Shown piece after piece: positions 35,544 to 53,910 of a DNA stretch of 64,000 nucleotides. Below the pieces are notes generated by a model. It saw only the letters and a program-made list of their open reading frames with translations, searched no databases and had not been told where the DNA came from. Position 1 is the first letter of the stretch. Each line of letters opens with the position of its first letter. This DNA comes from Mycobacteriales bacterium (GTDB lineage: Bacteria; Actinomycetota; Actinomycetes; Mycobacteriales; SCTD01), in contig DATLGD010000164.1 of NCBI GenBank assembly GCA_035540755.1, positions 12 to 64,011 on the forward strand, given 5' to 3'. The translations under genes were made by a program, and so were the position numbers.

Positions 35544-35576
35544 GACGTCAGGCTAGCCGTCGGCGGAAGCCGAAGG

Positions 35577-37938: not shown

Positions 37939-38013
37939 GAGGCGGGACGCTAGTGCAGACCGGGCCGGGCGGGGGCCGGATGTGCACGGGCGGGTCGCGC
38001 GTACCCTCCCCCG

Positions 38014-39108
38014 GTGATCACCTGGCGCCGCGGCACGGTGCGCGAGGTGCGCCGGGCCTGGCGCGGCGCGGTGGAGCTGGTCGTGGCCCTGGAGGCCGAC
38101 GGACCGCCGGAGGTCGGACCGCCTGAGGTGCGCGCGCTGGCGCACCCGGACCTGGTCGGAACGCCGGAGCCGGGTGACGCCGTCCTGCTCAACACCACCG
38201 CCGTCGACCTCGGCCTCGGCACCGGCGGATACGCGCTGGTCGTGGCCCTCCCCGACCGGCTGCCGCCGGACCGGACCGGGCCGGGGCACCTGGTCAAGGC
38301 CCGGTACACCCCTCTGCAGGCCGTGGTCCTCGGCGCGGACGAGCCGGCGGCGCCCTCCCACGCGGTGCTGGCCGATGACCGGCCGCTGGCGGCGCCCGGA
38401 CTGCCGGTGGTGGTGGCCGACCTGCACTCGTCGCTGCCCGCGGTGCTCGCCGGGGTCCTCGACGCCCGTCCGGAGGCCCGGGTCGCCTACGTCATGACCG
38501 ACGGCGGCGCCCTGCCGCTCTGGTTCTCGCGCACGGTGGCCGCGCTCTGCAGCGGCGCGGCGCCCGGTCGCCTCGTCGGCACCGTGACGGTCGGGCAGGC
38601 CTTCGGCGGCGACCTCGAGACGGTCACGCTGCACTCCGGCCTGCTCGCCGCCGCCCGGGTGCTGCACGCCGACGTCGCCGTGGTGACCCAGGGCCCCGGC
38701 AACCTGGGCACCGGCACGGCCTGGGGCTTCTCCGGCGTCGCTGCCGGTGAGGCGGTCAACGCGGCCGCGGCCGTGGGAGCCCGCCCGGTGGCGGTGCTGC
38801 GCATGTCGGAGGCCGACCCTAGGCCCCGCCACCGGGGGGTCAGCCACCACAGCGTCACCGCCTACGGACGGGTGGCGCTCGCCCCTGCCGACGTCGTCGT
38901 GCCGTCGTCGTGGGCGGCACTGGTCGAGCCGGTGCGGCCGGCCCTGGGGCGGCACCGGCTGGTCGAGGTCGACGACGACGGCCTGCGCGCGGCGCTCGAG
39001 CCCTGGGCCGGCCTGCTCTCGACGATGGGCCGCGGTCTGGCCGAGGACCCGGTGGCCTTCGTCGCCGCGGCCGCTGCCGGACGGCACGCCACCGGGCTGC
39101 TGGCGTGA
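38014..39108 (+). CDS. DUF3866-family protein
   Basis: 364 aa with the remembered family pattern: NTTAVDLGLGTGGYALVV....GHLVKARYTPLQ...VTQGPGNLGTGT.WGFSG...RHRG.SHHS. Confidence 0.7.
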   Translation: MITWRRGTVREVRRAWRGAVELVVALEADGPPEVGPPEVRALAHPDLVGTPEPGDAVLLNTTAVDLGLGTGGYALVVALPDRLPPDRTGPGHLVKARYTPLQAVVLGADEPAAPSHAVLADDRPLAAPGLPVVVADLHSSLPAVLAGVLDARPEARVAYVMTDGGALPLWFSRTVAALCSGAAPGRLVGTVTVGQAFGGDLETVTLHSGLLAAARVLHADVAVVTQGPGNLGTGTAWGFSGVAAGEAVNAAAAVGARPVAVLRMSEADPRPRHRGVSHHSVTAYGRVALAPADVVVPSSWAALVEPVRPALGRHRLVEVDDDGLRAALEPWAGLLSTMGRGLAEDPVAFVAAAAAGRHATGLLA

Positions 39109-40595
39109 GGACCGCGCGGCTCGACGCCCGGCAGCGCCTCGCCCGGCGCTTCGCCGCGACGATGTCGCTGGCGATGATCGGCTCGAACACCATCGGCGCC
39201 GCAGTCGTGTTCACCTACCTGACCTTCGTCGTGCCCGACCGGCCCACCGACAGCCCGACCGCGACCCTGGTGAACACGATCGTCGCGGCCGCCTACCTGC
39301 TCCTCGCGCTCGTCGTGGGCACCATCGGCAGCTTCCTGCTGCAGCGCCGCCTGCTCCGCTGGCTGCGGCCGGGGCACGTCATCGGCCCGGAGGACCGCCG
39401 GACGACGCTGCGCCTGCCGGCCCGCCTCGTGCGCTTCTACGGCGCGCTGTGGGCGGTCGCCGTCGTCGTCTTCGCGGTGCTGAACCTGCCCCGGTCGCTC
39501 GCCGGAGGGCTCGACGTCGTCGCGACCATCGCCGCGGGCGGCGCGACGACCTGCGCGCTGTGCTACCTGCTGGCCGAGCGCATCGTCCGGCCGCTGGTCG
39601 CGGAGGTGATGGGCGACGGCTCCGACCCGCCGCCGGTCGTGCTCGGTGTGCGCCGCCGCGTGCTGCTCTCCTGGGCCCTCGGCACCGGGATCCCGCTGCT
39701 CGGCATCGCCCTGGCGGTGGTGCCCGACGGCCGTGAGGAGCCGGTCGGTGCCCTGCCGGTGCTGTTCCTGTGCGGGGTGGGCCTGGCCGTCGGACTGCTC
39801 GCGATGGACGTCGCCGCCCGCTCGGTCAGCGAGCCGGTGCAGACGATGACCGGCGCCCTCCGTGCGGTCGGCGAGGGCCGCCTCGACAGCGCCGTCCCGG
39901 TGGACGACGTGAGCGAGCTCGGGCAGCTGCAGGCCGGCTTCAACGCGATGGTGGCGGGGCTGCGCGAGCGCGAGCAGCTGCGCGACCTGTTCGGGCGCCA
40001 GGTCGGCACCGCGGCTGCCCGGCTCTCGCTCGAGCAGGGCGTGCAGCTCGGCGGCGAGCGCCGGGACGTCGCCGTGCTGTTCGTCGACGTCGTCGGGTCG
40101 ACGTCGCTGGCGGTCGAGGCGGAGCCGGAGGAGGTGGTGCGGCGGCTGAACGAGTTCTTCGCCGTCGTGGTCGACGTCGTGACCGCCCACCACGGCTGGG
40201 TGAACAAGTTCGAGGGCGACGCCGCGCTCTGCGTCTTCGGCGCGCCCGAGCGGCGGACCGACGCCGCCGCCTGCGCACTCGCGTGCGCCCGGGTCATGGC
40301 CGGGCGGCTGTCACCGCTGCCGCTGGACGCGGCGATCGGCGTCAGTGCCGGGCCGGTGGTCGCCGGGCACATCGGCACCGAGGAGCGCTTCGAGTACACC
40401 GTCATCGGCGACCCGGTGAACGCCGCCGCCCGGCTCACCGACCTGGCCAAGAAGGAGCCGCGGCGGGTGCTCGCCGACGCCGCCGTCGTGGCCGCCGCCG
40501 GACCGGAGTCCGCCGAGTGGGAGGAGTGCGGGCAGGCCGTGCTGCGCGGCCGGGCGAGGCCGACCGGGCTCTCCCGGCCGAGGGCCGGCCGCTAG
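39105..40595 (+). CDS. Membrane-anchored HAMP-domain class III adenylate/guanylate cyclase
   Basis: 496 aa from GTG 39105, which overlaps the DUF3866 stop as GTGA. N-terminal TM segments and a HAMP-like linker (SELGQLQAGFNAMVAGL) precede the cyclase core (VAVLFVDVVGSTSLA, NKFEGDAALCVFGAP, YTVIGDPVNAAARL). Confidence 0.85.
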   Translation: MRTARLDARQRLARRFAATMSLAMIGSNTIGAAVVFTYLTFVVPDRPTDSPTATLVNTIVAAAYLLLALVVGTIGSFLLQRRLLRWLRPGHVIGPEDRRTTLRLPARLVRFYGALWAVAVVVFAVLNLPRSLAGGLDVVATIAAGGATTCALCYLLAERIVRPLVAEVMGDGSDPPPVVLGVRRRVLLSWALGTGIPLLGIALAVVPDGREEPVGALPVLFLCGVGLAVGLLAMDVAARSVSEPVQTMTGALRAVGEGRLDSAVPVDDVSELGQLQAGFNAMVAGLREREQLRDLFGRQVGTAAARLSLEQGVQLGGERRDVAVLFVDVVGSTSLAVEAEPEEVVRRLNEFFAVVVDVVTAHHGWVNKFEGDAALCVFGAPERRTDAAACALACARVMAGRLSPLPLDAAIGVSAGPVVAGHIGTEERFEYTVIGDPVNAAARLTDLAKKEPRRVLADAAVVAAAGPESAEWEECGQAVLRGRARPTGLSRPRAGR

Positions 40596-40972
40596 GAGAC
40601 GCCCAGCAGGTCGACGACGAACACCAGCGTCTCGTTCGGGGCGATCACACCGCCGGCGCCGCGGGCGCCGTAGCCCAGGTGCGGCGGGATCGTCAGGCGG
40701 CGGCGCCCGCCGACCTTCATCCCGGCCACGCCCTGGTCCCAGCCGCCGATGACCCGGCCGGCCCCGAGCGGGAACGAGAACGGCTCCCCGCGGTCCCAGG
40801 ACGCGTCGAACTGCCGCCCGGTCGACCAGGAGTGCCCGACGTAGTGCATGGTGCAGGTGGTGCCCGGCACGGCCTCCCTCCCGTCGCCGACGGCGAGGTC
40901 CTCCATCTGCAGCTCCTGCGGCGGCGGGCCGGAAGGGATCTCGACGGTCGGCTTGCTGATCGGGGCGCTCAT
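40592..40972 (-). CDS. FKBP-type peptidyl-prolyl cis-trans isomerase (cytosolic type)
   Basis: 126 aa: HYVGHSWSTGRQFDASWDRGEPFSFPLGAGRVIGGWDQGVAGMKVGGRRRLTIPPHLGYG. It shares a CTAG stop overlap with the convergent cyclase gene. Confidence 0.88.
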   Translation of the reverse strand: MSAPISKPTVEIPSGPPPQELQMEDLAVGDGREAVPGTTCTMHYVGHSWSTGRQFDASWDRGEPFSFPLGAGRVIGGWDQGVAGMKVGGRRRLTIPPHLGYGARGAGGVIAPNETLVFVVDLLGVS

Positions 40973-40985
40973 GGCGCCCACGCTG

Positions 40986-42344
40986 TCACATGGACGCGAT
41001 GAGCTTGTCGACGCGGTCGTCGACGGAGCGGAACGGGTCCTTGCAGAGCACGGTGCGCTGCGCCTGGTCGTTGAGCTTGAGGTGCACCCAGTCGACGGTG
41101 AAGTCGCGCCGCTTGTCCTGGGCGTGCCGGATGAACTCACCGCGCAGCCGCGCCCGGGTGGTCTGCGGCGGCACCGACTTGGCCTCGAAGACCGCCAGGT
41201 CGGTGGTTGCCCGCGCGACCGCGCCCTTCTTCTCCAGCAGGTAGTACAGGCCCCGGTCCCGGTGCACGTCGTGGTAGGCGAGGTCGAGCTGGGCCACCCG
41301 CGGCGACGAGAGCGGCAGGTCGTGCTTGGCCCGGTAGCGCTCGATCAGCTGGTACTTGGTCACCCAGTCGATCTCGCGGTCGACCAGCGACAGGTCTCCG
41401 GTGTCGACCGCCTGCAGCGTGCGGCCCCACAGGTCGAGGACGCGGTCGACGGTGGCGTCGGACCCGCGCCGGGCGATGAAGTCGACCGCCTTGCCGTAGT
41501 ACTCCCGCTGGATCTCGAGGGCGCTGGCCTCCCGCCCGTTGACCAGCTTGACCTTGCGCCGGCCGGTGATGTCGTGGCTGATCTCGCGGATCGCCCGGAT
41601 CGGGTTCTCCAGGGTGAGGTCGCGCATGACGACCCCGGCCTCGATCATCCGCAGCACCAGGTCGGCGGTGCCCACCTTGAGCAGCGTCGTGACCTCGTTC
41701 ATGTTGCTGTCGCCGACGATGACGTGCAGCCGGCGGAACCGCTCGGCGTCGGCGTGCGGCTCGTCCCTGGTGTTGATGATCGGGCGCGAGCGGGTAGTCG
41801 CCGACGACACGCCCTCCCAGATGTGCTCGGCCCGCTGGCTCACGCAGTAGACGGCGCCGCGCGGCGTCTGCAGCACCTTGCCCGCGCCGGCGATGATCTG
41901 GCGCGACACCAGGAACGGGATGAGGACGTCCGCGAGCCGGCTGAACTCCCCGTGCCGCCCCACGAGGTAGTTCTCGTGGCAGCCGTAGGAGTTGCCGGCC
42001 GAGTCGGTGTTGTTCTTGAACAGGTAGATGTCGCCGGCGATGCCCTCCTCGCGCAGCCGCCGCTCGGCGTCCACGAGCAGGCCCTCGAGGATGCGCTCGC
42101 CGGCCTTGTCGTGCGTGACCAGGTCGACGGCGTCGTCGCACTCGGGCGTCGCGTACTCGGGATGGGAGCCGACGTCGAGGTACAGGCGGGCGCCGTTGCG
42201 CAGGAAGACGTTCGAGCTCCGGCCCCAGCTGACCACCCGGCGGAACAGGTAGCGCGCCACCTCGTCCGGCGAGAGCCGCCGCTGCCCGCGGAAGGTGCAG
42301 GTGACGCCGTACTCGTTCTCGATCCCGAAGATCCGACGCTCGAT
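40986..42344 (-). CDS. pafA: Pup--protein ligase PafA (non-canonical ATC start inferred)
   Basis: Colinear with the remembered Mtb PafA throughout: [16 protein letters not shown]...[48 protein letters not shown] ... [21 protein letters not shown]. The track ORF starts only at GTG 42260, but the conserved N-terminus continues in frame up to a TGA at 42351-42353. An ATC at 42344-42342 aligns with Met1 and gives 452 aa. Confidence 0.88.
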
Positions 42345-42432
42345 CTTGGCTCAGCTCCTGAATCACGTCGCGAACAGCTGCTCGTCCTCATCCTGACACG
42401 CTGTGGCGCCTTCAGGGCGGCTCCGTACTCCG

Positions 42433-43032
42433 TCAGCGGATCGGGGTGAGCAGGCGGAAGTAGATCGCCGAGCGCACCGTGCCGCCGAGGTTGAGCGTTC
42501 CGGTGTGACCGAGCTGCGGGTGCATGACCAGCGCGTCACCGGCCTCCAGCGGCACCGGCACAGGCTCGGTGTGCTCACCGCGGTGCGAGCGCGGCCACAC
42601 CCAGGCCACCCCGTCGTCAGGTCCCGCGGTGGTCAGCGCGACCCCGACGACGCCGCGGTAGCGCTTGTCCTGCGCCCACGGCGGAAGGGCGTCGACGTGC
42701 GGCTCGAGCGGCCAGTCCTGCGCCTCGTCGGGGAAGCGCAGCAGGATCTGCGGCTCGGCCCAGTCGTCGCCCTCCTGCCAGCCGAGCAGCTCGGCGGCCG
42801 GATCCGGCAGCACGCCCCACACCTCGGGTTCCCAGCGCAGGTGGGGGAAGAAGGTTCCTGGCTGCCACGCGCGGATCTGCTCGGCTGTCAGGCCCTGCCT
42901 GCGGATCTCGAGGTTCAGCAGCCGCAGCGCGGCGGCCACCCGGGAGGCAGAGACCACCTCGCGCAGGACGGTGTAGCCCTCCTGCTCCAGGTCGGTGCGG
43001 GCGGCCTGCAGAGCGGGGGCCGAGGTCGTCAC
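42433..43032 (-). CDS. Small Fe(II)/2-oxoglutarate dioxygenase-like protein (PhyH-type HxD...H)
   Basis: 199 aa from GTG 43032 with EGYTVLREVV, WPLEPHVDALPPW (HxD) and LVMHPQLGHTG. This is short for a PhyH protein. It is the last gene of the glycosyltransferase operon. Confidence 0.55.
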   Translation of the reverse strand: MTTSAPALQAARTDLEQEGYTVLREVVSASRVAAALRLLNLEIRRQGLTAEQIRAWQPGTFFPHLRWEPEVWGVLPDPAAELLGWQEGDDWAEPQILLRFPDEAQDWPLEPHVDALPPWAQDKRYRGVVGVALTTAGPDDGVAWVWPRSHRGEHTEPVPVPLEAGDALVMHPQLGHTGTLNLGGTVRSAIYFRLLTPIR

Positions 43033-43070
43033 GGGAGCGCTCCTTCGCGGCGGGGCTGTCCGCGTCGAAC

Positions 43071-44162
43071 CTAGCGACCGGCCGCGCGCACCTCGGCGAC
43101 GTGCGCCTCGAGCTCGTCGGCGCGGTGCTCGGCCGTGTGCTCGGCCAGCACCCTCCTGCGAGCCGCCTCCCCGATCCGTGCGCGCCGGTCGTCGTCGACC
43201 GCCCGCAGGTGCTCGACGACGTCTGCCGCCGACCGCGCGACGAGGATCTCCTCCCCCGGGGTGAAGAAGGCGTCCAGGCCCGCCCACACGTCCGAGACGA
43301 CGGGCACACCGCACGCCGCGGCCTCGAACAGGCGCACGCTGGGCGACCAGCCGGCGCGGACCATGTCGGCGCGGGTGACGTTCAGGGTCAGCCGCTGGGC
43401 GCTGTAGAAGCCGACGTGCTCGGCCGGCGGCAGGTGCTCGATGCGCTGCACGTTGGCCGGCCACGGGACGTCCGCCGGGTACTGCGGCCCGGCGACCACG
43501 AAACGCTCCTCCGGCAGGGCGCGGGCCGGGGCCGCGAGCAGCTCGTCCAGCACCGGCTGGCGGTCGGCGCTCCACGTGCCGAGGTAGCCCAGGGTCCAGT
43601 GCCGCTCGACCTCGACGGGGGCGTACGCGCTCTCGTCGACCAGGCAGTGGAAGGCCCGCGCCCGGGGCGAGCCGAGCGCCTGCTCGAGATGGTCGAGGGT
43701 CGGCCCGCCGGTGAACGACAGGTAGAGGTCGTAGCCCGGCACGAGCTCCGGGACGAGGTACTCGCACTCCCCCCGCCCGAGCGCCGCCAGCGTGACGGGA
43801 GTGTCGATGTCGTAGAAGGCGGTGACGCCGGTGGCGGTCTCCTGCACCCACCGCCCGACGTCCACCCCCTGCGGGACGTACGAGCCGACGACCACGAGGT
43901 CGGCGTCGCGCACGGCCGCGGCGTGCTCGTCGCGCAGCTGCTCCATCGAGGCGTACAGGGCGGTGCGGCCCCAGGGCGGCTCCGGCAGATCGCGGTGCTC
44001 GGCGTACCAGGGGACGTCGCGCTCGAGGAACAGCACGTCGTGCCCGCGCCCGTCCAGCGCCCGGACCAGGGCCCGGAAGTTCGTGGCGTGCCCGTTGCCC
44101 CACGAGGAGGTGATGGACAGCCCGAGGACGACGATGCACAGCCCCTCGGCGGACGGCCTCAT
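43071..44162 (-). CDS. CgeB-like / DUF3880-type glycosyltransferase, paralog 1
   Basis: 363 aa. N-terminal SSWGNGHATNFRALVRALDGRGHDV and C-terminal GT1-like region NVTRADMVRAGWSPSVRLFEAAACGVPVVSDVWAGLDAFFTPGEEILVA. A 4-nt overlap joins it to paralog 2. Confidence 0.72.
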   Translation of the reverse strand: MRPSAEGLCIVVLGLSITSSWGNGHATNFRALVRALDGRGHDVLFLERDVPWYAEHRDLPEPPWGRTALYASMEQLRDEHAAAVRDADLVVVGSYVPQGVDVGRWVQETATGVTAFYDIDTPVTLAALGRGECEYLVPELVPGYDLYLSFTGGPTLDHLEQALGSPRARAFHCLVDESAYAPVEVERHWTLGYLGTWSADRQPVLDELLAAPARALPEERFVVAGPQYPADVPWPANVQRIEHLPPAEHVGFYSAQRLTLNVTRADMVRAGWSPSVRLFEAAACGVPVVSDVWAGLDAFFTPGEEILVARSAADVVEHLRAVDDDRRARIGEAARRRVLAEHTAEHRADELEAHVAEVRAAGR

Positions 44163-45229
44163 CGCACCCGCTCGCGCAGGATCTCGTCGACCTGCACCGC
44201 CCGGTGCCCGTAGGTGTGCTCGGAGAGCACCCGCTCCAGCGCCGCCTTGCCGAGCAGCCGCGCCCGCTCGGGATCGAGGTCGCGCAGGTGATCGGCGACC
44301 TGCCGGCCGTCGTAGGCCACGAGCACCTCGCGGTCCGGCACGAGGAAGTCCTCGATACCCTGCCAGCCGTCGGTGATCTGGCAGGCCGCGGCCCCGGCGA
44401 CCTCGAAGACGCGGGTGGCGGGTGACCACCCGTTGGCGACCATGCTGTCGCGGGTGACGTTCGAGACCGCGAGCGGCGTGGAGTTGAACGCGTTGTGGTC
44501 GGCGGTGCCGACGTGACCGAGCAGGCGCACGTTCGGCGGCACCGGCTTGTCGCCCCAGCCGTTGCCGGCCAGCAGGAACGTGCGGTCCGGCAGCAGCGAG
44601 GCCGGCCGCAGGAAGAACTCCTCGACGCGCGCCTCGCGGTCCGGCAGCCGGTTCGCGAGCAGGGCCAGGTCGACGTCGAAGCGCGGGTCGGGGTCGGCCG
44701 GGTGGTGCGTCGTCGGGTCGAGCGCGTTGTAGACGACGATGCACTCGCGGGCGCCGAGAGCGGTGTAGCGCTGCACCACCGGGTCGCCGCCGCCGTAGGT
44801 CAGCACCAGGTCGTACGACGGCAGCAGGGCCCGGAAGGAGTCCGCCGGGTCGTCCTCCATCCGCGACAGCGTCGCGGGCGCGTCGACGTCCCAGAAGGCG
44901 GTGCAGGTGCCGAGCGAGAGCACGGCGTCCTCGAGCACGTCGTCGAAGACCCCGACGCCGCTGGTCTTCACGACCAGGTCGGCGCCGCGCGCCCGCTCCA
45001 CCGTCGCCCGCACCGCGGCCTCGTCCGGCGCCTCGTAGATGACGACCGTCGCCCAGTCCGGGTCGGGGATGTCGCGGTGCTCCTGCCGCTCGTAGGCGAC
45101 CGGCTCGTAGAACGTGACGCGGTGGCCGAGCTCGTGCAGGCCGCGGATGATGCCGCGGTAGTAGGTGCACGAGCCGTTCCACCACGAGGAGACCAGGCTC
45201 GATCCGAAGAAGGCGATGTCCAGGCTCAT
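44159..45229 (-). CDS. CgeB-like / DUF3880-type glycosyltransferase, paralog 2
   Basis: 356 aa with SSWWNGSCTYYRGIIRGLHELGHRV and NVTRDSMVANGWSPATRVFEVAGAAACQITDGWQGIEDFLVPDREVLVA. It has 4-nt overlaps on both sides. Confidence 0.72.
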   Translation of the reverse strand: MSLDIAFFGSSLVSSWWNGSCTYYRGIIRGLHELGHRVTFYEPVAYERQEHRDIPDPDWATVVIYEAPDEAAVRATVERARGADLVVKTSGVGVFDDVLEDAVLSLGTCTAFWDVDAPATLSRMEDDPADSFRALLPSYDLVLTYGGGDPVVQRYTALGARECIVVYNALDPTTHHPADPDPRFDVDLALLANRLPDREARVEEFFLRPASLLPDRTFLLAGNGWGDKPVPPNVRLLGHVGTADHNAFNSTPLAVSNVTRDSMVANGWSPATRVFEVAGAAACQITDGWQGIEDFLVPDREVLVAYDGRQVADHLRDLDPERARLLGKAALERVLSEHTYGHRAVQVDEILRERVR

Positions 45230-46344
45230 GCGGTGCTCCCTGCGGTCGGGACGGTGTGCAGGCCGAGCTCGGCCACGACCGCCAGCAGCTCGTCGACGCG
45301 GTGCGCGCAGGTGTGCCGCGCGCCGATGGTGCGCAGGCCGCTCTCCCGCAGCGACTGCGCCAGGTCCGGGTCGTGCAGGACGTCGCGCAGGTGCGCCTCC
45401 ATCTGCGCGCCGTCCGTCGCGACGAGGTAGTCGCTGCCGGGCGTGAACAGGCCCTCCGCGTCGTCCCACGGGGCGGTGACCAGCGGGATGCCGCAGGCCA
45501 GCGCCTCGAACGGCCGGATGGTCGGGATGCCCGGCAGCGCCTCGACGTACGGCCGCCGCGGCACGTGCACGGTGACGCCGTGCGCGGCGAAGGCCCGCGG
45601 GGCGAGGTGGTTGGCGATCCACCCGCCGTAGCGGATGCCCGCCTCCCTCAGCGCCTGCTTCGCGCCAACCGGGTAGCGCACCCCGTGCACCGTCGCCCGC
45701 AGCCCGAGCCGGTGCACCGGGGCGAGCAGGAACTCGTGCAGCTCGGCCGTGCGCTCGCCGTCGCCCCAGTTGCCGATCCAGACCAGGTCTCCCTCGCGCT
45801 GCACTCCGTCGACGGGGGTGAAGACGCGGGCGTCGGCGGCCTCGTGCCACGTCCAGGCGCGCCCGGTCCAGCCGCGGTCGAGGTAGATCCGCCGGATCAC
45901 CTCGCCGAAGGCGAGCACGCCGTCGTACTGCGAGAGGTCGTAGGCCGCCATGTCCTCAGGTGCGGTGGCAGCCCGGTGGTGGGTGTCGTGGAAGAGCAGC
46001 CGGTAGCCGCCCGCGGCCTTGTGCGCGCCGACCGCGGCGACCAGCGACGGCTCGTTCCACTCGTGCACCAGGACGAGGTCGGCGCCCTCGGTCATGGCGG
46101 GCACGTCGGGCTCGAGCGGGTCGTAGACCCGGCTGCGCAGCCGCGGGAACGCCCGGAGCACGTCGTCGACGGCGCCGCGGCCCTGGTCGACGACGAGGTT
46201 CGCGCGGCTCCAGGCGTCCAGCGGCTCGTGGACCCGGACGTCGTGGCCGCGGTCGAGCAGGTCGCGAACGACGCCACGCAGGAAGTGCGCGTTGCCGTGG
46301 TTCCAGTCGCTGACCAGCGAGTGGCAGAACACGACGATCCTCAT
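45226..46344 (-). CDS. CgeB-like / DUF3880-type glycosyltransferase, paralog 3 (more divergent)
   Basis: 372 aa with SDWNHGNAHFLRGVVRDLLDRGHDV and HVPRRPYVEALPGIPTIRPFEALACGIPLVTAPWDDAEGLFTPGSDYLVA. It has 4-nt overlaps on both sides. Confidence 0.72.
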   Translation of the reverse strand: MRIVVFCHSLVSDWNHGNAHFLRGVVRDLLDRGHDVRVHEPLDAWSRANLVVDQGRGAVDDVLRAFPRLRSRVYDPLEPDVPAMTEGADLVLVHEWNEPSLVAAVGAHKAAGGYRLLFHDTHHRAATAPEDMAAYDLSQYDGVLAFGEVIRRIYLDRGWTGRAWTWHEAADARVFTPVDGVQREGDLVWIGNWGDGERTAELHEFLLAPVHRLGLRATVHGVRYPVGAKQALREAGIRYGGWIANHLAPRAFAAHGVTVHVPRRPYVEALPGIPTIRPFEALACGIPLVTAPWDDAEGLFTPGSDYLVATDGAQMEAHLRDVLHDPDLAQSLRESGLRTIGARHTCAHRVDELLAVVAELGLHTVPTAGSTA

Positions 46345-47369
46345 CGCGCACCCACCGGCAGAGCGGCATAGGCGGCGAGGTAGCCGGCGGCGGTCCGCTC
46401 CGGGGTGTAGGTCAGCGCCCGGGCCCGGGCAGCGGCACCTCGCGACGGGTCCTGCAGCGCCTCCTCCAGCGCGTCCACGAGCGAGGCGTCGTCGTGCACG
46501 TAGGTGGCGGCCTCGCCCCACACCTCGCGCAGGCTCGGGAGGTCCCCCAGCACCAGCGCGCAGCCGGCGAGAGCGGCCTCGAGGATGCCGAGCCCGAACG
46601 GCTCGTAGCGCGCCGGGGCGGCGTAGACCGCTGCCCGGGCCAGGAGCGCAGCCAGCGCCGGGAAGGCTAAGGGGCCGAGCACGTCGACACCGGGCAGGTC
46701 GCCCGGTCCCTCCCCGGCCACCCGCACCGGTGCGGACAGCGACGGCGCGACGCGGCAGAGCGCGTCCACACCCTTGGCGTCGTCCCAGGTCCGGCCGGCG
46801 GCCAGCACGAGCGGCTCCTTGTCGGCCGGCGCGAGGAGCTCCCCCCGGCGGCAGTTCGGGACGACGGTCGCGCCCTCGAAGCCGTACGAGGCGCGCAGGT
46901 CGGCCGCGACGGCGGCCGTCGGCGCGACGACCCGCCCGGCGGCGCGCAGCCCCGCGGCCACCGCCGCCCGGTAGACGTCCCACTCGGCCGGCGCCTCAGT
47001 GCCCCGCACGGCGCGGAACCAGGAGACGACGTCGGAGTGCGCGACGACCAGCGGGCGCGTGCGCCAGGCCAGGGCGGCGTGCACGTAGCCGTTGAGGTGC
47101 ACGACGTCGGGCTGCAGCTCCTGCTCCAGCGAGAGCAGCCAGCCGCCGGCCTGCTCGACGCCCGGCCACGGGTCGTGCTGCCACTCGAGCGGGAAGGTCG
47201 AGACGTGCACCGAGGCGAAGGCGCCGGCCTCCTCCGCCTGCGCCGGCGACAGGCCGCGCCCCATGGTCGCCAGGTGCACCTCCACCCCGCAGGGGCGCAG
47301 TGCGTGCGCGAGCTCGACCGCGTAGGTCCAGACGCCGCCGACGGTGTCGGCCGTCATGAGCACCCTCAC
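46341..47369 (-). CDS. GT4-family (GT-B, retaining-type) glycosyltransferase
   Basis: About 342 aa: MTADTVGGVWTYAVELA and the E-x7-E region YEPFGLGILEAALAGCALVLGD. A GTG start at 47369 gives a GTGA overlap; the ATG at 47357 is the alternative start. Confidence 0.8.
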   Translation of the reverse strand: MRVLMTADTVGGVWTYAVELAHALRPCGVEVHLATMGRGLSPAQAEEAGAFASVHVSTFPLEWQHDPWPGVEQAGGWLLSLEQELQPDVVHLNGYVHAALAWRTRPLVVAHSDVVSWFRAVRGTEAPAEWDVYRAAVAAGLRAAGRVVAPTAAVAADLRASYGFEGATVVPNCRRGELLAPADKEPLVLAAGRTWDDAKGVDALCRVAPSLSAPVRVAGEGPGDLPGVDVLGPLAFPALAALLARAAVYAAPARYEPFGLGILEAALAGCALVLGDLPSLREVWGEAATYVHDDASLVDALEEALQDPSRGAAARARALTYTPERTAAGYLAAYAALPVGAR

Positions 47370-48340
47370 CGGCCGTACACCCGGTCGAGCACCGCAGCGG
47401 TGGTGACCAGCTCCTCGTTGGCCGGGTCGTACCGCTCGCCCGCGGCGAGCCGCCGGGTCCAGTCGACGGCGGCGCGGCCGCCCCAGGCGTCCGGCGGCTC
47501 GACCAGCACCGAGCGACTCGTCCCGGTGTGCCGGGTGGCGCGGAAGTCGTAGAAGGAGCCCCCGACGTTGGTGAGCGCGACGGCGCCGGAGGTGCCGTGG
47601 AAGGTCGCGGCGATGACCGCCTCCTGCCCGGCGTGCAGGTTCCACGAGCAGCCGAGCGTCAGGACCCGGCCACCGGTGAGGTCGATCCTCGCGGTGGCGA
47701 AGTCCTCGACGACGTCGGTGCGGCCGTCGAGCGGGCGGCCGCCGGCGAACAGCCGCGAGCAGACGCCCTCGACTCCGGCTCCGGGCAGCAGGTGCAGCGC
47801 GAGGTCGACCAGGTGGGTGCCGAGGTCGATGACGCAGCCGCCGCCGGACAGCTCCGGGTCCCGGAACCACGGCTTGTCCGGCCCGTAGGCGTTGTGGAAG
47901 ACGAGCTCCGCGGCGTAGACCTCGCCGAGCTCGCCGGACTCGAGCACCTTGCGCAGCGCCTCGGTGGCGGCCAGGTGGCGGTAGGACAGGTCGACCCCGA
48001 GCAGCCGGTCGGCGACGCGGGCGGCAGCCACCACCTCCGCGGTCTCGGCGGCGGTGCGGCCGAGCGGCTTCTGGCAGAAGACGGCGCTGCCGCCCCGCAG
48101 CGCCGCGAGCGTCTGCTCGGCGTGCAGCGCGCTCGGGGTGGCGATGACGACGCCGTCGAGGCCGGCTGCGAGCAGCTCCTCCGGACGGACGGCCTCGGCA
48201 CCCGCCTCGGCGGCGGCCTCCGCGGCGGCCTGGGGGGAGGCGTCCGCAACCAGCGTCGCCTCGGCCAGCCCGCTGGCGACGATCGCCCGCATCCGGTCCC
48301 GGCCGATCCACCCGACGCCGAGGAAGCCCAGCCGGGTCAT
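47366..48340 (-). CDS. Gfo/Idh/MocA-family NAD(P)-dependent oxidoreductase
   Basis: 324 aa with a Rossmann N-terminus (RLGFLGVGWIGRDR), the consensus EKP-like motif (FCQKPL) and a C-terminal alpha/beta domain. Confidence 0.85.
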   Translation of the reverse strand: MTRLGFLGVGWIGRDRMRAIVASGLAEATLVADASPQAAAEAAAEAGAEAVRPEELLAAGLDGVVIATPSALHAEQTLAALRGGSAVFCQKPLGRTAAETAEVVAAARVADRLLGVDLSYRHLAATEALRKVLESGELGEVYAAELVFHNAYGPDKPWFRDPELSGGGCVIDLGTHLVDLALHLLPGAGVEGVCSRLFAGGRPLDGRTDVVEDFATARIDLTGGRVLTLGCSWNLHAGQEAVIAATFHGTSGAVALTNVGGSFYDFRATRHTGTSRSVLVEPPDAWGGRAAVDWTRRLAAGERYDPANEELVTTAAVLDRVYGR

Positions 48341-49272
48341 GAGGTGACCAGGGCCTTGACGAAGCCCTCCGGCCGCTCGGCGGCGGCATCCATCGCCGCC
48401 TTCAGGTCCTCCAGCGGGAAGGCGTGCGTGTAGAGCGGCCGCGGGTCGAGCCGGCCGGACGCGACGGCGTCGACAGCTGCGCGGATCCCCCGCAGCTGCA
48501 CCTCGGGGTCGCGCTCGTGGGCGTTGACGACGTCGATCCCGCGCCAGTTCCACAGCTGGACGTTCACCGACCGCAGGCCGTCCTGGTGGAATCCGGCGAT
48601 GACCAGCCGGCCGCCGAAGCCGGTGAGCTCTCCGGACAGGTCGAGCGGCCAGGGCGCGCCGGTTCCCTCGACCACCCGCTCGCAGAACGTCCCTCCGGTC
48701 AGGCCGGCGACCTCGTCGATCACGCGCGCGTGGTCGTCCATGAGGACCGTCTCGGCGGCCCCCATCTGCCGGGCCACCTGCAGGGCCGACTCCTTCCGAG
48801 CGACCGCGACGACGCGGCAGCCGGCCGCCGCGGCCAGGGCCACGAGCAGCGCGCCGAGGAAGCCCACGCCGACCACCGCGACGGTCTGCCCCGGCTCGAA
48901 GCCGCTGCGCCGGGCGGCGTTGAACGCGCAGCCGATCGCCTCGCCGGGGAACGGCTGGCCGTCCAGCTCGGGCGGCAGCGGGACGAGCCGGTCCGCCGGC
49001 ACCACCAGCTCGTCGGTGAAGGCGTCCTCGGCCAGCAGCGCGACGCGCGTGCCTTCGCCGCGCCCCTCCACGACCCGACCCCAGGCCTCGTGGCCGGGGT
49101 TGCCCGGCCGCAGCGGGTAGTCGAACCACGGTCGCCCCTCCCAGGCGGGCAGGTTCGAGCCGCAAACGCCGCAGCCCTCGACCGCGACCCGGACGCTGCC
49201 GGGGACCAGCGGCGGTGAGGCGCCCTGCACCAGCTCGACGGACCCGGGGCTCGTCACCACCGCGCTGCGCAC
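48337..49272 (-). CDS. Zinc-type medium-chain alcohol/polyol dehydrogenase
   Basis: 311 aa with CGVCGSNL, GHEAWGRV and the NAD-binding motif VAVVGVGFLGALLV. Confidence 0.85.
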   Translation of the reverse strand: MRSAVVTSPGSVELVQGASPPLVPGSVRVAVEGCGVCGSNLPAWEGRPWFDYPLRPGNPGHEAWGRVVEGRGEGTRVALLAEDAFTDELVVPADRLVPLPPELDGQPFPGEAIGCAFNAARRSGFEPGQTVAVVGVGFLGALLVALAAAAGCRVVAVARKESALQVARQMGAAETVLMDDHARVIDEVAGLTGGTFCERVVEGTGAPWPLDLSGELTGFGGRLVIAGFHQDGLRSVNVQLWNWRGIDVVNAHERDPEVQLRGIRAAVDAVASGRLDPRPLYTHAFPLEDLKAAMDAAAERPEGFVKALVTS

Positions 49273-49280
49273 GACCGCGC

Positions 49281-50318
49281 TCAGCCCGCTCTCGACGCCG
49301 CGACCCGCGCGCCCGAGGACGCCAGCCAGTCGTGCAGCAGCTTCACGCCCTCCTCGGGCGAGGTCTTCGGCGCCCAGCCAGTGGCCTCGGCGAAGCGGCG
49401 GGTGTCGGAGACGTAGTAGCGCTGGTCACCGACGCGCCAGTCGCCGAAGCGGACCTCCGGAGCCGGGCCTAGCGTCCCGATGAGCTCCAGCAGCTCGAGC
49501 AGGCTGACCGTGCTCTGCGGGCCGCCACCCATGTTGAAGGCCTGTCCCCGGAGGTCGTCGGCGGCGCCGATCGCGAGCTCCATCGCGTCGAGCAGGTCGT
49601 CGACGTAGAGCACGTCGCGGACCTGCCGGCCGTCGCCGTACAGCGTGATCGGGGCGCGGTCGCGGGCCTGCAGGAGGAAGTGCGCGACCCAGCCCTGGTC
49701 CTCGTTGCCCTGCTGGTGCGGCCCGTAGATGCAGCTCATCCGGAAGACGACGTGCGGCATCCCGTAGGTCTGCGCGTAGTCCAGGACGTACTGGTCCGCC
49801 CCGCCCTTGGAGCAGCCGTACGGGCTGGCGAACTGCAGCGGCCAGTGCTCGCCGATGCCGTGCTCGCGCACCTGCTCGTCGACCGGCTCGTACCGCCCGC
49901 CCCGCTGCTCGACCCGCAACCCGGCGAGCTTGCCGTAGACCTTGTTGGTGGAGGTGAACAGCAGCGGCGGTGGGTCGCTGCGACGGCGCAGCTCCTCGAG
50001 CAGCGCGATCGTGCCGCCGAGGTTGACCGAGTAGTCGTGCACCGGCTCGGTCACCGACGTCGTCACCGCGACCTGCGCGGCGAAGTGGAAGACCCGGTCG
50101 GCCTTCCGGGCGGCGGTGCGGACGTCGTCGGCGCTGCGGACGTCGCCGCGCACGACCTCGAGGCGGTCGGGATGGGTGTGCTCCAGCCACTGCAGGTTGG
50201 TCCGGACACCGGGGCGCGACAGGTCGTCGAGCACGACCACCCGCTCCCCCGCCTGCAGCAGGCGGGCCGCGAGGTTGGTCCCGACGAAGCCGGCTCCTCC
50301 GGTGACGAGGGAGGTCAT
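49281..50318 (-). CDS. NAD-dependent SDR epimerase/dehydratase (CDP-paratose 2-epimerase / UDP-hexose 4-epimerase-like)
   Basis: 345 aa from the ATG at 50318: LVTGGAGFVGTNL, SPYGCSKGGADQY (YxxxK), QGWVAHF. Only the C-terminal third of the 1067-aa track ORF is real. Confidence 0.85.
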   Translation of the reverse strand: MTSLVTGGAGFVGTNLAARLLQAGERVVVLDDLSRPGVRTNLQWLEHTHPDRLEVVRGDVRSADDVRTAARKADRVFHFAAQVAVTTSVTEPVHDYSVNLGGTIALLEELRRRSDPPPLLFTSTNKVYGKLAGLRVEQRGGRYEPVDEQVREHGIGEHWPLQFASPYGCSKGGADQYVLDYAQTYGMPHVVFRMSCIYGPHQQGNEDQGWVAHFLLQARDRAPITLYGDGRQVRDVLYVDDLLDAMELAIGAADDLRGQAFNMGGGPQSTVSLLELLELIGTLGPAPEVRFGDWRVGDQRYYVSDTRRFAEATGWAPKTSPEEGVKLLHDWLASSGARVAASRAG

Positions 50319-51433
50319 ACGGCGAGCCCGCGCCGGGCCAGCTCGGCGGTCGCGGCATCGACGCCGTCCACCGCCACCTGCCCCTCGAGCCACTCGGCCA
50401 GCTCGGTCAGGCCCTTCTCCAGCGTCACCTGGGGCACGTACCCGAGCACCTGCCCGGCGCGCGAGACGTCGGCGAAGCAGTGCCGGATGTCGCCGACGCG
50501 GAACGTCCCGGTGGCCTCCGGGGTGATGTCGGTCCGGTCGAGGATCTGCGCCAGCGAGGTGGCGATCTCGTTGACCGTGATGCTCTGGCCGCTGCCGACG
50601 TTGAGCACCTCCCCGGCCGCCGCCTCGCCCGCGGACAGGGCGAGGGCGCAGGCCCGGGCCACGTCGTGCACGCTGACGAAGTCGCGCTGCTGCGCGCCGT
50701 CCTCGAAGATCAGCGGCGGGCGGCCGTTGAGCAGCCGCGAGGCGAAGATCGCCAGCACGCCGGTGTAGGGGTTCGACAGGGCCTGGTAGGGCCCGTAGGC
50801 GTTGAAGAAGCGCAGCGCGACGGTCGGGACCTTGTACGCCTCGCCGAACATCAGGCAGAGCCGCTCCTGGTCGTACTTGCCCAGGGCGTAGACGCTGGAC
50901 AGCGTCGGCGGCTTGTCCTCCGCGGTAGGCACCGGGGTCAGGGCCTGCCCCTGCGGCCCCACCGGCTCCCAGCGCCCGGCCTCGAGGTCGCTGCGCCGGC
51001 GCATCACGGCGGGCACCGGGTCGCCGACGGCGTCGACGTAGCGGCCCTCGCCGTACACGCTCATGCTGGACGCCACGAGCAGCTGCTCCACCGGCGTCTC
51101 GGCCAGCGCCTCGAGCAGCACGCCGGTGCCGACGCCGTTGACCGAGGTGTACTCGGCGATCTCGTACATGCTCTGGCCGACGCCGACCCGGGCCGCCAGG
51201 TGCGCCACCCGGTCCGCGCCCGCGAGGGCGCGGCGGACGGCCTCGGGGTCGCGGACGTCGCCGACCACCAGCTCGACGTCGTCCGGGAGGTAGCCCGGCC
51301 GCTCGCCGGAGGGGTGGACCTGAGGGTGGAGCACGTCGAGCACCCGGACCCGGTCCCCGGCCTCCAGCAGCTCGCGGGCGAGGTGAGCGCCGATGAAGCC
51401 GGCGCCGCCGGTGATGAGGACGGTGCGGGACAT
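50315..51433 (-). CDS. NAD-dependent SDR epimerase/dehydratase
   Basis: 372 aa: [25 protein letters not shown] (YxxxK), RFFNAYGP. It carries an insertion relative to GalE-type enzymes. It is the first gene of the minus-strand operon. Confidence 0.85.
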
Positions 51434-51554
51434 GCGTTCTCTCTTCGCTCGGCGAACGGCTGATCCTCAGATCTGGTCCATCTCCGGACAACCTAAACGA
51501 GATGCTGCTGATGCTGCTGACGTCGATCCGCGGCGCGTCGGCCATAGTGTGCCG

Positions 51555-52511
51555 ATGACGAAGAGGACCGTGGTGACGGGCGGCGCCGGCTTCCTGGGGT
51601 CGCACCTGTGCGAGCAGCTGCTGCAGCGGGACCACGAGGTGGTGGCCCTCGACAACTTCCTGACCGGCTCGGCGGCCAACGTCGAGCACCTGATGGAGGA
51701 CGACCGCTTCCGGCTGATCAAGGCCGACGTCACCGACTACGTGCACGTTCCGGGGCCGGTGGACGACGTCCTGCACTTCGCCAGCCCTGCCTCGCCGGTC
51801 GACTACCTCGAGCTGCCGATCGAGACGATGAAGGTCGGCTCGATCGGCACGCTGCACGCCCTCGGCCTGGCCAAGGAGAAGGGCGCCCGCTTCCTGCTCG
51901 CCTCCACCTCCGAGACCTACGGGGACCCGCAGGTCCACCCCCAGCCCGAGGACTACTGGGGGCACGTGAACCCGGTGGGCCCCCGAGGGGTGTACGACGA
52001 GGCGAAGCGGTTCGCCGAGGCCCTGACGATGGCCTACCGGCGCACCCACGACGTCGACACGGCGATCGTGCGGATCTTCAACACCTACGGCCCCCGGATG
52101 CGGCCCAACGACGGACGGGCCATCCCGACCTTTATCCGCCAGGCGCTGGCCGACGAGCCGATCACGGTCGCCGGCGACGGCACCCAGACCCGCAGCGTCT
52201 GCTACGTGGACGACCTGGTCACCGGCCTGCTGGCGCTGCTGGAGTCCGACCTGGCTGGGCCGGTCAACATCGGCAACCCGCAGGAGCTGTCGATGCTCGA
52301 GCTGGCGACGCGCATCGTCGACCTCACCGGCTCCTCGAGCCCGATCACCTTCGTCGAGCGGCCGGTCGACGACCCGAGCGTGCGCCGGCCCGACATCCGG
52401 CTGGCCCGGAACGCGCTGGGCTGGGAGCCGACCGTCGACCTCGACGCCGGCCTGCGGCAGACGATCGCCTGGTTCGAGCGGCACGAGGCGCTGCAGCGCG
52501 ACGTCGCCTGA
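51555..52511 (+). CDS. uxs: UDP-glucuronate decarboxylase (UDP-xylose synthase)
   Basis: 318 aa from the ATG at 51555: [90 protein letters not shown]. It is divergent from the glycosyltransferase operon. Confidence 0.88.
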
Positions 52512-52527: not shown

Positions 52528-53910
52528 TCAGCGCAGCTCGGTCCAGCCGGACCACGCCGTGCCGGCCCCGGTCGCCCGGTAGAGCTTGCCGTCGGTGCCG
52601 TGCACCACGACGTCGGCGCGGTCGCTGCCGGTCGTGGCCGCGACGCTGGGCGCCGACGACAGGGCGCCGCCGAGGGCCGTCCAGCCGGCGTCGCCGGTCG
52701 GTCGCATCCGCTGGACGTAGGTGCGGTCGTCCGGCCCGCGCACGGCCAGGACGGGCCCGCTCGCGGACGGAGCCAGCCCCACGTCGCCCTTGGCCGCGCC
52801 GCCCAGGCGCGACCACGGCGTCCAGGTGCTGCCGGCGCGGGTGCGCCGCCAGGGGCCGCCGTCGGTGCCGAGCACGACCACCTCGAGCACCTCGGGGCCG
52901 GAGCGCACCAGGCCGGGGCCGGATGCCTCGAGGACGCCGCCGCCGGCGCTCGCCCAGCCGCCCTGCTTCAGGCCGGCGTCGAAGGACGTCAGCCAGGTCC
53001 TGCCGTCGGCGCCGCGCACGGCGACGTCGAACCCGCCGGCGAGGTCGGAGGCCACGGCGGGTCGGGTCGACAGCAGACCGCCGCCGGGCAGCCAGCCGGT
53101 CCAGGCCTTGCCGGGCGGCCTGGTGTTCACCCAGAGCGCGTCGTCGGTGCCGCGGCCGGCCGCCACCAGCGTGCCGTCGGTGAGGACCGCGGTGCCGAGG
53201 CCGCCGACCACGGAGCCGCCCAGCCCGGTGGCCGTGCCGAACCCGCCGCCGGGGCGCCAGGTGCGCTGGGTGCCGGACCCGGCAGTGCTGCGCAGCACCA
53301 GGGAGAGCCCGTCGCCGTCGATCGCCAGCCCCGGCGTCGGTGCCGACGTGCGCAGCCACCAGCTGGTGCTCTGCCGGGCGCCGCTCCAGCTGAGCGAGAA
53401 GTGCACGTGGTCGACGTGCGGGTTGCTGCCCGTGTACGGGCTCCACCCGGGGTTGGTGCCGTAGGCCTTGAAGACCTGCTTGTTCCAGATGATGTACATG
53501 ATGCCGAGCCGGCGCGCCCTGGCGTGCGCGTTGCCGTTGTCGTCGGGCTCGGTGAGCCAGGCGAGCAGCTCGTCGGCCGCCGCCTTCTCCTCCGGCTTGT
53601 CCGCGTGGACCGGCCAGTCCCAGGCCCGGCCGTCCTTGTGCTCGCTGGTGCCGCCCGAGGCGCAGTCGCGCAGCAGGTACCCCTTGCGGAACGCCGGGTA
53701 GGCCGAGGTGACGAGCTCCTGCAGGGCGACGACGCCCGGGGTGGGCACGGCGGCGCAGCGGGTCTGGCCGTCGTAGCGGGCGTAGGGGTCGACGGTCGCG
53801 GTGCTGAAGGTGGGCGTGGCCGGCGGCGCGGCCAGCGCGGTCCCGCCGACGAGCAGGGCGGCGGCGAGGGCCACAGGCAGCAGGGCACGACGGGTGGAAC
53901 GGCGGGGCAT
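52528..53910 (-). CDS. Secreted LAS/M15-type metallopeptidase-like domain fused to a C-terminal Trp-rich beta-propeller repeat domain
   Basis: Signal peptide MPRRSTRRALLPVALAAALLVGGTALAAP. The N-domain has SEHKDGRAWDW (SxHxxGxAxD) and NPHVDHVHFS (HxH-containing), typical of VanY/M15 peptidases. The C-terminal ~280 aa carry 5-6 repeats of about 47 aa (WTGWLPGGG, WTPWSRLGG, GWTALGG ... VVVHGTDGKLY) and end in WSGWTELR. Confidence 0.7.
   Translation of the reverse strand: MPRRSTRRALLPVALAAALLVGGTALAAPPATPTFSTATVDPYARYDGQTRCAAVPTPGVVALQELVTSAYPAFRKGYLLRDCASGGTSEHKDGRAWDWPVHADKPEEKAAADELLAWLTEPDDNGNAHARARRLGIMYIIWNKQVFKAYGTNPGWSPYTGSNPHVDHVHFSLSWSGARQSTSWWLRTSAPTPGLAIDGDGLSLVLRSTAGSGTQRTWRPGGGFGTATGLGGSVVGGLGTAVLTDGTLVAAGRGTDDALWVNTRPPGKAWTGWLPGGGLLSTRPAVASDLAGGFDVAVRGADGRTWLTSFDAGLKQGGWASAGGGVLEASGPGLVRSGPEVLEVVVLGTDGGPWRRTRAGSTWTPWSRLGGAAKGDVGLAPSASGPVLAVRGPDDRTYVQRMRPTGDAGWTALGGALSSAPSVAATTGSDRADVVVHGTDGKLYRATGAGTAWSGWTELR

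Follow-up and report, generated by a model that had tools for sequence, protein, structure and literature searches.

What is made by a tightly packed run of sugar-enzyme genes that has no genes for priming, flipping or polymerising a chain beside it? The question is raised by a 64,000-nucleotide stretch of contig DATLGD010000164.1 (assembly GCA_035540755.1) from a Mycobacteriales bacterium, hereafter the window. It carries nine genes on the minus strand (g1 to g9) and a divergently transcribed gene, uxs. A preliminary description, made from the sequence alone, read this block as an overlapping operon for nucleotide-sugar modification and transfer, and flagged it for its atypical composition. 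We find instead that this composition is typical of a gene cassette with a very wide distribution, and the block is predicted to be the actinobacterial version of that cassette, which is horizontally mobile.

Raw lists of open reading frames (ORFs) are useless at the ~75% G+C found across the window, and genes were therefore called from third-position G+C (GC3), with a caller run independently of the coordinates given before. For eight of the nine minus-strand genes the two sets of coordinates were identical; for g2 the caller agreed on the stop at 49281 and proposed an alternative upstream start. GC3 was 0.92–0.99 throughout. Inspection of the junctions likewise bore out the layout claimed earlier: six are 4-nt stop/start overlaps (ATGA five times, GTGA once) and the remaining two are gaps of 8 nt and 38 nt, the latter with a sequence resembling a ribosome-binding site, GAAGGAG, upstream of g9. 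The region between g1 and uxs, the sole sizeable non-coding gap in the block, presumably holds promoters for both the operon and uxs. A sigma-70 consensus scan of this region gave no match and a terminator scan found no terminator-like site within the block, both scans being uninformative at ~75% G+C, and an Rfam search returned no RNA element near the block. Judged from its sequence, the block forms a tightly coupled operon that encodes nucleotide-sugar-modifying enzymes together with four glycosyltransferases (GTs), and in which translation of the eight core genes is predicted to be coupled via overlapping stop and start codons. Dozens of unrelated genomes share this gene order, and the arrangement therefore goes far beyond what chance would give.

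The coordinates of the block are collected in Table 1. Pfam confirmed each of the domains called beforehand: two short-chain dehydrogenases/reductases (SDRs), a Zn-dehydrogenase, a Gfo/Idh/MocA (Gfo) oxidoreductase, a GT4, three CgeB-like proteins and a dioxygenase. For none of the ten window proteins was an NCBIfam match above cut-off obtained, nor does any of them contain a hydrophobic stretch that would suggest a membrane span; a single high Kyte-Doolittle peak, in g3, coincides with the NAD-binding GVGFLG stretch.

Table 1. Features of the block, of its surroundings in the window and of two related loci (NDP, nucleoside diphosphate; MDR, medium-chain dehydrogenase/reductase; GH, glycoside hydrolase; identity, median identity to the window protein).
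Feature	Coordinates	Strand	Length	Assignment	Basis	Identity
g1	50315..51433	-	372 aa	Extended SDR, GalE-like NDP-sugar 4-epimerase family	Pfam Epimerase 4e-49	61%
g2	49281..50318	-	345 aa	Extended SDR, CDP-tyvelose 2-epimerase-like NDP-hexose C2-epimerase	PDB matches and motifs	59%
g3	48337..49272	-	311 aa	Short MDR Zn-dehydrogenase, polyol-dehydrogenase type	Pfam ADH_zinc_N and ADH_N	53%
g4	47366..48340	-	324 aa	Gfo/Idh/MocA oxidoreductase	Pfam GFO_IDH_MocA	57%
g5	46341..47369	-	342 aa	GT4-family GT-B glycosyltransferase	Pfam Glyco_transf_4, Glyco_trans_1_4, Glycos_transf_1	50%
g6	45226..46344	-	372 aa	CgeB-like GT-B paralogue 1	PF13524 1.4e-34	62%
g7	44159..45229	-	356 aa	CgeB-like GT-B paralogue 2	PF13524 9e-35	62%
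g8	43071..44162	-	363 aa	CgeB-like GT-B paralogue 3	PF13524 2.6e-44	63%
g9	42433..43032	-	199 aa	Small PhyH-type Fe(II)/2-oxoglutarate oxygenase	Pfam PhyH 5e-9	
Divergent intergenic region	51434..51554		121 bp	Presumed promoters	Sole sizeable non-coding gap	
uxs	51555..52511	+		UDP-glucuronate decarboxylase (UDP-xylose synthase)	Human UXS1 match	
helY-like helicase, tatC, pafC, pafB, then pafA	31194-42350	-/+		Conserved actinobacterial run	Conserved synteny	
DUF3866 gene (between pafB and pafA)	38014-39108					
HAMP-adenylate cyclase gene (between pafB and pafA)	39105-40595					
FKBP isomerase gene (between pafB and pafA)	40592-40981					
Tandem glycine riboswitch aptamers	813-1014	+			Rfam RF00504, 57.7 and 42.7 bits	
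gcvP	1077-3959			Glycine-cleavage P-protein		
lnt, then GT2 gene	9275-11562	-		Apolipoprotein N-acyltransferase (Lnt) and GT2		
ORF	52528-53910	-	460 aa		High GC3; no Pfam match at E<=1	
ORF	56294-57067	-	257 aa		High GC3; no Pfam match at E<=1	
ORF	60127-62439	-	770 aa		High GC3; no Pfam match at E<=1	
Fusion gene, related locus L044	2317-4386			GH-A-like barrel fused to epimerase		
Fusion gene, related locus L082 (R. etli IE4803_PD00366)	6647-8689			GH-A-like barrel fused to epimerase		

Recurrence of the cassette across bacterial phyla

Relatives of g8 were sought in a scan with one genome per species. At least 597 species-level genomes encode one, as found in 597 of the 600 pattern matches listed. 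The ten window proteins were mapped by tblastn onto the best 80 loci, and a census of accessory genes was extended to 88 loci (numbered L below). The best 80 loci span ~14 phylum-level groups: Actinomycetota, Myxococcota, Desulfobacterota, Pseudomonadota, Gemmatimonadota, Acidobacteriota, Cyanobacteriota, Planctomycetota, Armatimonadota, Bacteroidota, Rhodothermota, Chloroflexota, Verrucomicrobiota/Lentisphaeria and Candidatus Eisenbacteria. Across them g1 to g8 recur in a fixed order (string 12AG4678) at 38–78% amino acid identity. All eight genes are present in 22 of the 80 loci and a six-gene core (g1, g2, g5–g8) in 42; of the other loci, many lie on contigs that are short or truncated. In soil metagenomes g8 has thousands of close homologues, the best 120 of which are 70–87% identical. 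This distribution decisively disposes of the idea that the block might be private to one genome.

The cassette is also carried by 148 plasmid or chromid records (Sinorhizobium pSymB, Rhizobium, Roseomonas, Azospirillum and Paracoccus), and in close actinobacterial relatives (g8 identity 75–87%) it lies in four different chromosomal contexts, indicating that it is mobile as a unit. Recent horizontal transfer into the present genome was rejected, since neither G+C nor GC3 is anomalous in the window copy. The closest relative on a long contig (L084; ENA ERZ25039504 contig_4570, 806437-827519; g8 87% identical) keeps the PhyH gene and a divergent UXS-like SDR gene; upstream of g8 its cassette genes appear in the gene calls as short fragments, owing either to frameshifts in the assembly or to cassette decay.

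In the 88-locus census the minimal core is 1-2-4-6-7-8, that is g1, g2, the GT4, g6, g7 and g8. Between g2 and the GT4 there is either an MDR and Gfo pair, as in the window, or a B12-binding radical S-adenosylmethionine (radical-SAM) enzyme, or nothing. MDR occurs in 44 of the 88 loci and Gfo in 39, and the radical-SAM enzyme, at 785 bits a match to NCBIfam TIGR04295 ('B12_rSAM_oligo', cut-off 400), replaces the pair in nine. The MDR and Gfo pair is thus a swappable module. After g8, 51 loci have a methyltransferase of family TIGR04290 ('meth_Rta_06860'; scores of 344 and 328 bits, cut-off 300), which the relatives L085 and L086 also carry. Compared with the cassette marked by these two models, the window has the eight orthologues in identical order and differs in having the PhyH gene and the divergent uxs; no TIGR04295 radical-SAM gene was found in it, and a tblastn search of its 64 kb with the S. 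meliloti protein found no TIGR04290 methyltransferase. Both models are NCBIfam/TIGRFAMs 'hypothetical equivalog' entries for accessory genes, and curators have evidently noticed the cassette, which we take to be the 'rhizo-twelve system' of TIGRFAMs. The MSMEG_0565 system was rejected as a match (a partial 43-bit score against a 260-bit cut-off).

Further accessories recur at lower frequency. A GH-A-like TIM barrel (NEPNN...ITEAG) is encoded between g1 and g2 in 30 of the 88 loci; its Pfam matches are sub-threshold, and PGAP names the Sinorhizobium meliloti copy 'beta-xylosidase'. In Pontibacter and Rhizobium etli this barrel is fused N-terminally to the TyvE-like epimerase in proteins of 680–689 aa (Table 1), indicating that the two activities are physically linked. 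A UDP-xylose synthase (UXS) gene adjoins the cassette in 16 loci, a histidine phosphatase gene in 15 and an MsbA/PglK-type ABC exporter gene in six; UDP-glucose dehydrogenase (UGDH) is encoded directly after g8 in nine, and a nucleotidyltransferase is found in seven, five of them with a fourth CgeB-like copy. The suggestion, made in the preliminary description, that the pathway relies on distal genes is kept alive by the UGDH and exporter genes that adjoin the cassette in some other lineages. On S. meliloti pSymB (NC_003078.1, ~242.4–253.3 kb) the genes run, by PGAP annotation, beta-xylosidase, histidine phosphatase, hypothetical, Gfo and MDR, and then divergently SDR, SDR, GT4, three GTs, UXS and TIGR04290 methyltransferase; judged by gene order, the cassette would correspond to approximately SMb20238–SMb20249.

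Two side observations were made in the same loci. An extended version of the cassette in some Acidobacteriota, Alphaproteobacteria and Verrucomicrobiota has a further CgeB-like copy, 45–50% identical to g8 and usually accompanied by a sugar-phosphate nucleotidyltransferase (L040, L046, L064, L068, L071, and also L011 and L073). A GT20 gene, presumably of the trehalose-6-phosphate-synthase family, lies a few kb downstream in five Thermoanaerobaculia/Acidobacteria loci (L010, L021, L027, L041, L053), and may reflect lineage synteny or hint at a stress-solute context.

Within the collection searched, literature queries returned no paper on the cassette and none giving a product or phenotype. Near the S. 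meliloti copy, the sole gene mentioned is SMb20231, which encodes a neighbouring sugar-binding protein; a paper on bacterial UDP-apiose synthase was set aside as unrelated, as it reports no conserved operon. No characterised locus was found to match, which upholds the proposal of a candidate uncharacterised pathway. We conclude that the window copy is a glycan-biosynthesis operon in kind and, by its composition and distribution, is not a member of any characterised system.

Enzymes of the operon

The first gene, g1, encodes a protein with the motifs GGAGFIG at residue 9 and YALGK at 182. Its PDB sequence matches were to PelX (6wjb, 1e-40), MoeE5 (4e-39) and TmGalE, along two stretches (5–131 and 168–343), and it has an insertion of ~35 aa relative to solved homologues. 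It is predicted to group with these NDP-sugar 4-epimerases, and its orthologues in 47 loci are 52–71% identical. For g2 the matches were to TaTyvE (9rl0, 3.6e-78) and 1orr (8e-77). TaTyvE interconverts CDP-glucose and CDP-mannose, and its signature consists of a TNK segment, a VAM segment and a Tyr/Lys catalytic pair (PMC13098431); the first TaTyvE paper gives no genomic context. In g2 TNK is identical in position (124–126), VAV (83–85) replaces VAM and the Tyr/Lys pair is present (YGCSK at 167), features that mark it as a putative CDP-tyvelose-2-epimerase-type enzyme.

The product of uxs is similar to human UXS1 over residues 3–310 (E 7e-110, 370 bits), carries the SDR motifs GxxGxxG and Tyr-x3-Lys (GGAGFLG at 9, YDEAK at 147), and is 52% identical to a cassette-linked S. 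meliloti protein with the UniRef name 'UDP-xylose synthase 2'. The full-length similarity to human UXS1 shows that the divergent UDP-xylose synthase gene called earlier is genuine, and uxs is predicted to encode a true UDP-glucuronate decarboxylase.

A different picture was obtained for g3 and g4. The g3 protein has the motifs CGVC at 34 and GHE at 60, PDB matches to ketose reductase and sorbitol dehydrogenase, and scyllo-inosose 3-dehydrogenase IolM as its best NCBIfam match (1e-20, below cut-off). That of g4 matches 6jw6 (3e-27; deposited merely as 'Dehydrogenase'), DgpA (3e-23) and 1,5-anhydro-D-fructose reductase, with inositol 2-dehydrogenase IolG and levoglucosan dehydrogenase as best NCBIfam matches, both below cut-off. 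Enzymes of the DgpA, 1,5-anhydro-D-fructose reductase, IolG and levoglucosan dehydrogenase types act on free sugars or glycosides and are not known to act on nucleotide sugars. Both proteins look like free-sugar/polyol oxidoreductases rather than NDP-sugar enzymes. This corrects the earlier reading, which grouped all four redox or epimerase enzymes with UXS as makers of unusual donors.

Turning to the glycosyltransferases, g5 has an EX7E motif (EPFGLGILE at 256) and is the least conserved core gene, with a median identity of 50%. In PDB sequence searches both g5 and g8 gave weak PimA/PimB' matches, and g8 also weakly matched an NCBIfam model for N-acetylglucosaminyl-phosphatidylglycerol synthase. 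The PF13524 model (Glyco_trans_1_2) covers the C-terminal half of g6–g8 alone. An AlphaFold2 (AF2) model of g8, with a predicted local distance difference test score (pLDDT) of 90, has a complete GT-B fold, and its top Foldseek matches were MshA, sucrose-phosphate synthase (SPS), BshA, the methylmannose polysaccharide (MMP) mannosyltransferase ManT, GlgM, tll1591 and TreT, with a probability of 1.00 for MshA, SPS and BshA. The model superposes best on MshA, BshA, SPS with tll1591, and ManT (TM 0.65–0.73); however, g8 is 13–18% identical to these enzymes, and the cassette has four distinct GTs, unlike pathways with one processive enzyme. An FEA or FEV donor-binding motif is present at 275–279 in all of g6–g8, and in g8 the first Glu of EX7E is read from the sequence as Ser. 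From the GT-B fold of the g8 model and this motif, g6–g8 are predicted to be GT-B fold glycosyltransferases that are GT4-like.

The three CgeB-like paralogues are mutually 28–35% identical (28–30% for g6 against g7 and g8), whereas each shares 54–78% identity with its orthologues from other phyla (g6, 54–76% in 62 loci; g7, 56–78% in 70 loci). Each also keeps private motif residues that are conserved at ≥95%. It follows that the triplication predates the spread of the cassette and that each paralogue has a distinct and constrained role. Their cross-phylum median identity to the window proteins, 62–63%, is above that of the adjacent UXS (52%).

The last gene, g9, gave nothing useful in a PDB sequence search. 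Its HxD...H...R residues (H112, D114, H176 and R187) do not vary among 20 homologues, and an AF2 model (pLDDT 93) matched GriE, SnoN/SnoK, AviO1 and PhyH in Foldseek. The facial triad, the 2-oxoglutarate (2OG)-binding Arg and the fold match of the model together place it in the PhyH family. The likeness to SnoN/SnoK of nogalamycin and AviO1 of avilamycin (E ~4e-10, TM 0.69; AviO1 is similarly small) is accompanied by an identity of 17–20%, and g9 has no aglycone or polyketide context; the fold does not in itself indicate a substrate class, because the amino-acid hydroxylase GriE scores equally well. The gene follows g8 with a 4-nt overlap in the relatives L084, L087 and L088 and follows the methyltransferase gene in L085, and a g8-PhyH fusion exists (P0033), indicating that it belongs to the cassette unit in this lineage. 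PhyH genes of this type are present in six of the 88 loci, all from Actinomycetota, and we conclude that the gene is a lineage-specific actinobacterial accessory.

Surroundings of the block in the window

The cassette is inserted immediately upstream of pafA, in a run of genes that is conserved in actinobacteria (pafA ... pafB/pafC, tatC and helY); three further genes stand between pafB and pafA (Table 1). The g9 stop is ~70–170 nt from the pafA start, depending on the start codon, and read-through from g9 into pafA is possible. A link to this adjacent Pup-proteasome gene was rejected, since in relatives the cassette stands in different chromosomal surroundings. At the block's opposite end, the 460-aa ORF is convergent with uxs and was not seen beside the cassette in relatives. 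The sole other glycosyltransferase found in the window is the GT2 beside Lnt, ~32 kb from the block, a housekeeping pairing that we take to be the lnt/ppm1-like one (ppm1 for polyprenol-phosphate-mannose synthase) of mycobacteria. The tandem glycine riboswitch aptamers precede gcvP, which is an ordinary arrangement.

Candidate products of the cassette

Our preferred reading, to which we assign a probability of about 0.5, is that a short hetero-oligosaccharide or glycoside is put together and tailored by the cassette enzymes within the cytoplasm, with epimerised NDP-hexoses and UDP-glucuronate-derived sugars as probable donors. UXS would convert UDP-glucuronate to UDP-xylose, and together with g1 and g2 it would diversify the common pools of NDP-hexoses and UDP-glucuronate. 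The GT4, g5, would start the chain from a small and perhaps phosphorylated acceptor, and g6, g7 and g8 may then extend it by one specific sugar each. The Gfo and Zn-dehydrogenase would oxidise and re-reduce a sugar or polyol position, and the PhyH oxygenase would add oxidative tailoring in this lineage, with TIGR04290 methylation as the probable cap in most others.

Several features of the related loci point in this direction. The recurrent linkage of UXS and UGDH suggests donors derived from UDP-glucuronate, the histidine phosphatase in 15 loci hints at a phosphorylated acceptor, and the fusion of the GH-like accessory to a cytoplasmic epimerase suggests that at least the intermediates are cytoplasmic. 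A cytoplasmic location also fits the ten window proteins, in which no span-like segment was seen. The structural neighbours of g8, several of which act on small soluble acceptors, include retaining GT4-type enzymes with acceptors of this kind, and those of g9 include the sugar-modifying oxygenases SnoN, SnoK and AviO1. By analogy, the combination of GTs, methyltransferase, hydrolase and phosphatase would resemble the logic of compatible-solute and polymethylated-polysaccharide pathways. The likeness does not extend to the MMP cluster itself, which is defined by ManT, 1-O- and 3-O-methyltransferases and MmpH: g8 resembles ManT (7qsg) at the level of fold, with 14% identity, and no methyltransferase or hydrolase was found in the window.

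Other points weigh against a cytoplasmic oligosaccharide or glycoside. Every biochemical step is drawn from homology, and the Foldseek ranking may merely mirror which GT4 structures have been solved. Elsewhere the model is supported by the methyltransferase, the phosphatase, the GH-like gene and UGDH, none of which is present in the window. In addition, the MsbA/PglK-type exporter of six loci, and the R. etli cassette that stands beside lipopolysaccharide and exopolysaccharide (EPS) genes, fit an exported or lipid-linked glycan.

These last two points lead to the strongest alternative, a rather improbable one in our judgement, in which the block is a module of a cell-envelope polysaccharide, lipooligosaccharide (LOS) or EPS pathway, with the priming transferase, the flippase or exporter, and the ligase of that pathway supplied by genes at other loci. 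Besides the exporter, it has on its side the R. etli neighbours (noeL, an O-antigen-ligase-like gene and other GTs), a pyruvyl transferase gene next to the S. meliloti copy, and PF13524 proteins reported from LOS outer-core loci of Acinetobacter baumannii. Like Wzx/Wzy- and ABC-dependent polysaccharide loci, the cassette clusters nucleotide-sugar enzymes with several GTs. However, Pfam scans of the block and of the window's large ORFs, with some smaller ORFs outside the scan, found no priming phosphoglycosyltransferase, Wzx/Wzy, polysaccharide ABC exporter or UGDH, in agreement with the preliminary description. The scanned genes are equally without a chain-length regulator or ligase, as are most related loci, and genes for priming or export do not accompany the cassette in most of the 88 loci. 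The GH-like accessory is, moreover, fused to a cytoplasmic enzyme. Surface-glycan loci are usually strain-variable, whereas the cassette is conserved across phyla in fixed order, and it is alike in monoderm Actinomycetota and in diderm phyla. It is this extreme cross-phylum conservation and fixed order, together with the occurrence in monoderms and diderms, that argues most strongly against an ordinary surface-glycan locus.

A membrane glycolipid seems to us a little less probable again. The GT4 would act on phosphatidylinositol, diacylglycerol or polyprenol at the inner leaflet, the CgeB-like GTs would extend the product, and in some lineages the exporter would flip it. The same six exporter loci would suit such a product, as would the weak matches of g5 and g8 to PimA/PimB' and of g8 to the N-acetylglucosaminyl-phosphatidylglycerol synthase model; these matches are, however, far under family cut-offs, no acyltransferase or lipid-synthesis gene co-travels with the cassette, and the histidine phosphatase and GH-like accessories suit soluble intermediates better.

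Protein glycosylation, by analogy with Bacillus subtilis CgeB and spore-crust glycosylation, we regard as unlikely. The Pfam family that g6–g8 match (E 1e-34 to 3e-44) is named after CgeB/YkvP, and databases annotate homologues as 'spore maturation protein CgeB', but the name reflects annotation transfer and not a tested activity. The likeness is at family level, the context of three paralogues with a GT4 and SDRs is unrelated to sporulation, most host taxa are non-spore-forming, and no conserved target-protein gene co-travels with the cassette. Least probable of all is oxidoreductive breakdown or salvage of an imported glycoside, which would account for the resemblance of g4 to DgpA, 1,5-anhydro-D-fructose reductase and the levoglucosan dehydrogenase model, for the frequent GH-like gene and for the sugar ABC importer beside the S. 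meliloti copy, but sits badly with the biosynthetic character of four conserved GTs, two NDP-sugar epimerases, UXS/UGDH and a methyltransferase, and with an oxidoreductase pair that is dispensable or replaced in many loci.

Returning to the cytoplasmic oligosaccharide or glycoside, we tentatively entertain a fuller version of it, in which the cassette makes a still-undiscovered and very widespread glycoconjugate. This product, a short hetero-oligosaccharide or glycoside of the cytoplasm, would probably contain xylose or a uronate-derived sugar and would often be O-methylated. The CgeB-like trio would co-evolve, maybe as one complex, the MDR and Gfo pair and the B12-radical-SAM enzyme would be interchangeable, and the caps, added by a methyltransferase or an Fe/2OG enzyme, would be lineage-specific.

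What this analysis adds is the recognition of the block as a pan-bacterial conserved unknown. The strong conservation across phyla implies that the product is under strong and general selection, and the hosts include tractable models, among them S. meliloti with pSymB, Azospirillum brasilense, R. etli and Sorangium cellulosum. Solving the cassette would assign a function to the CgeB-like PF13524 family outside Bacillus, and to TIGR04290 and TIGR04295.

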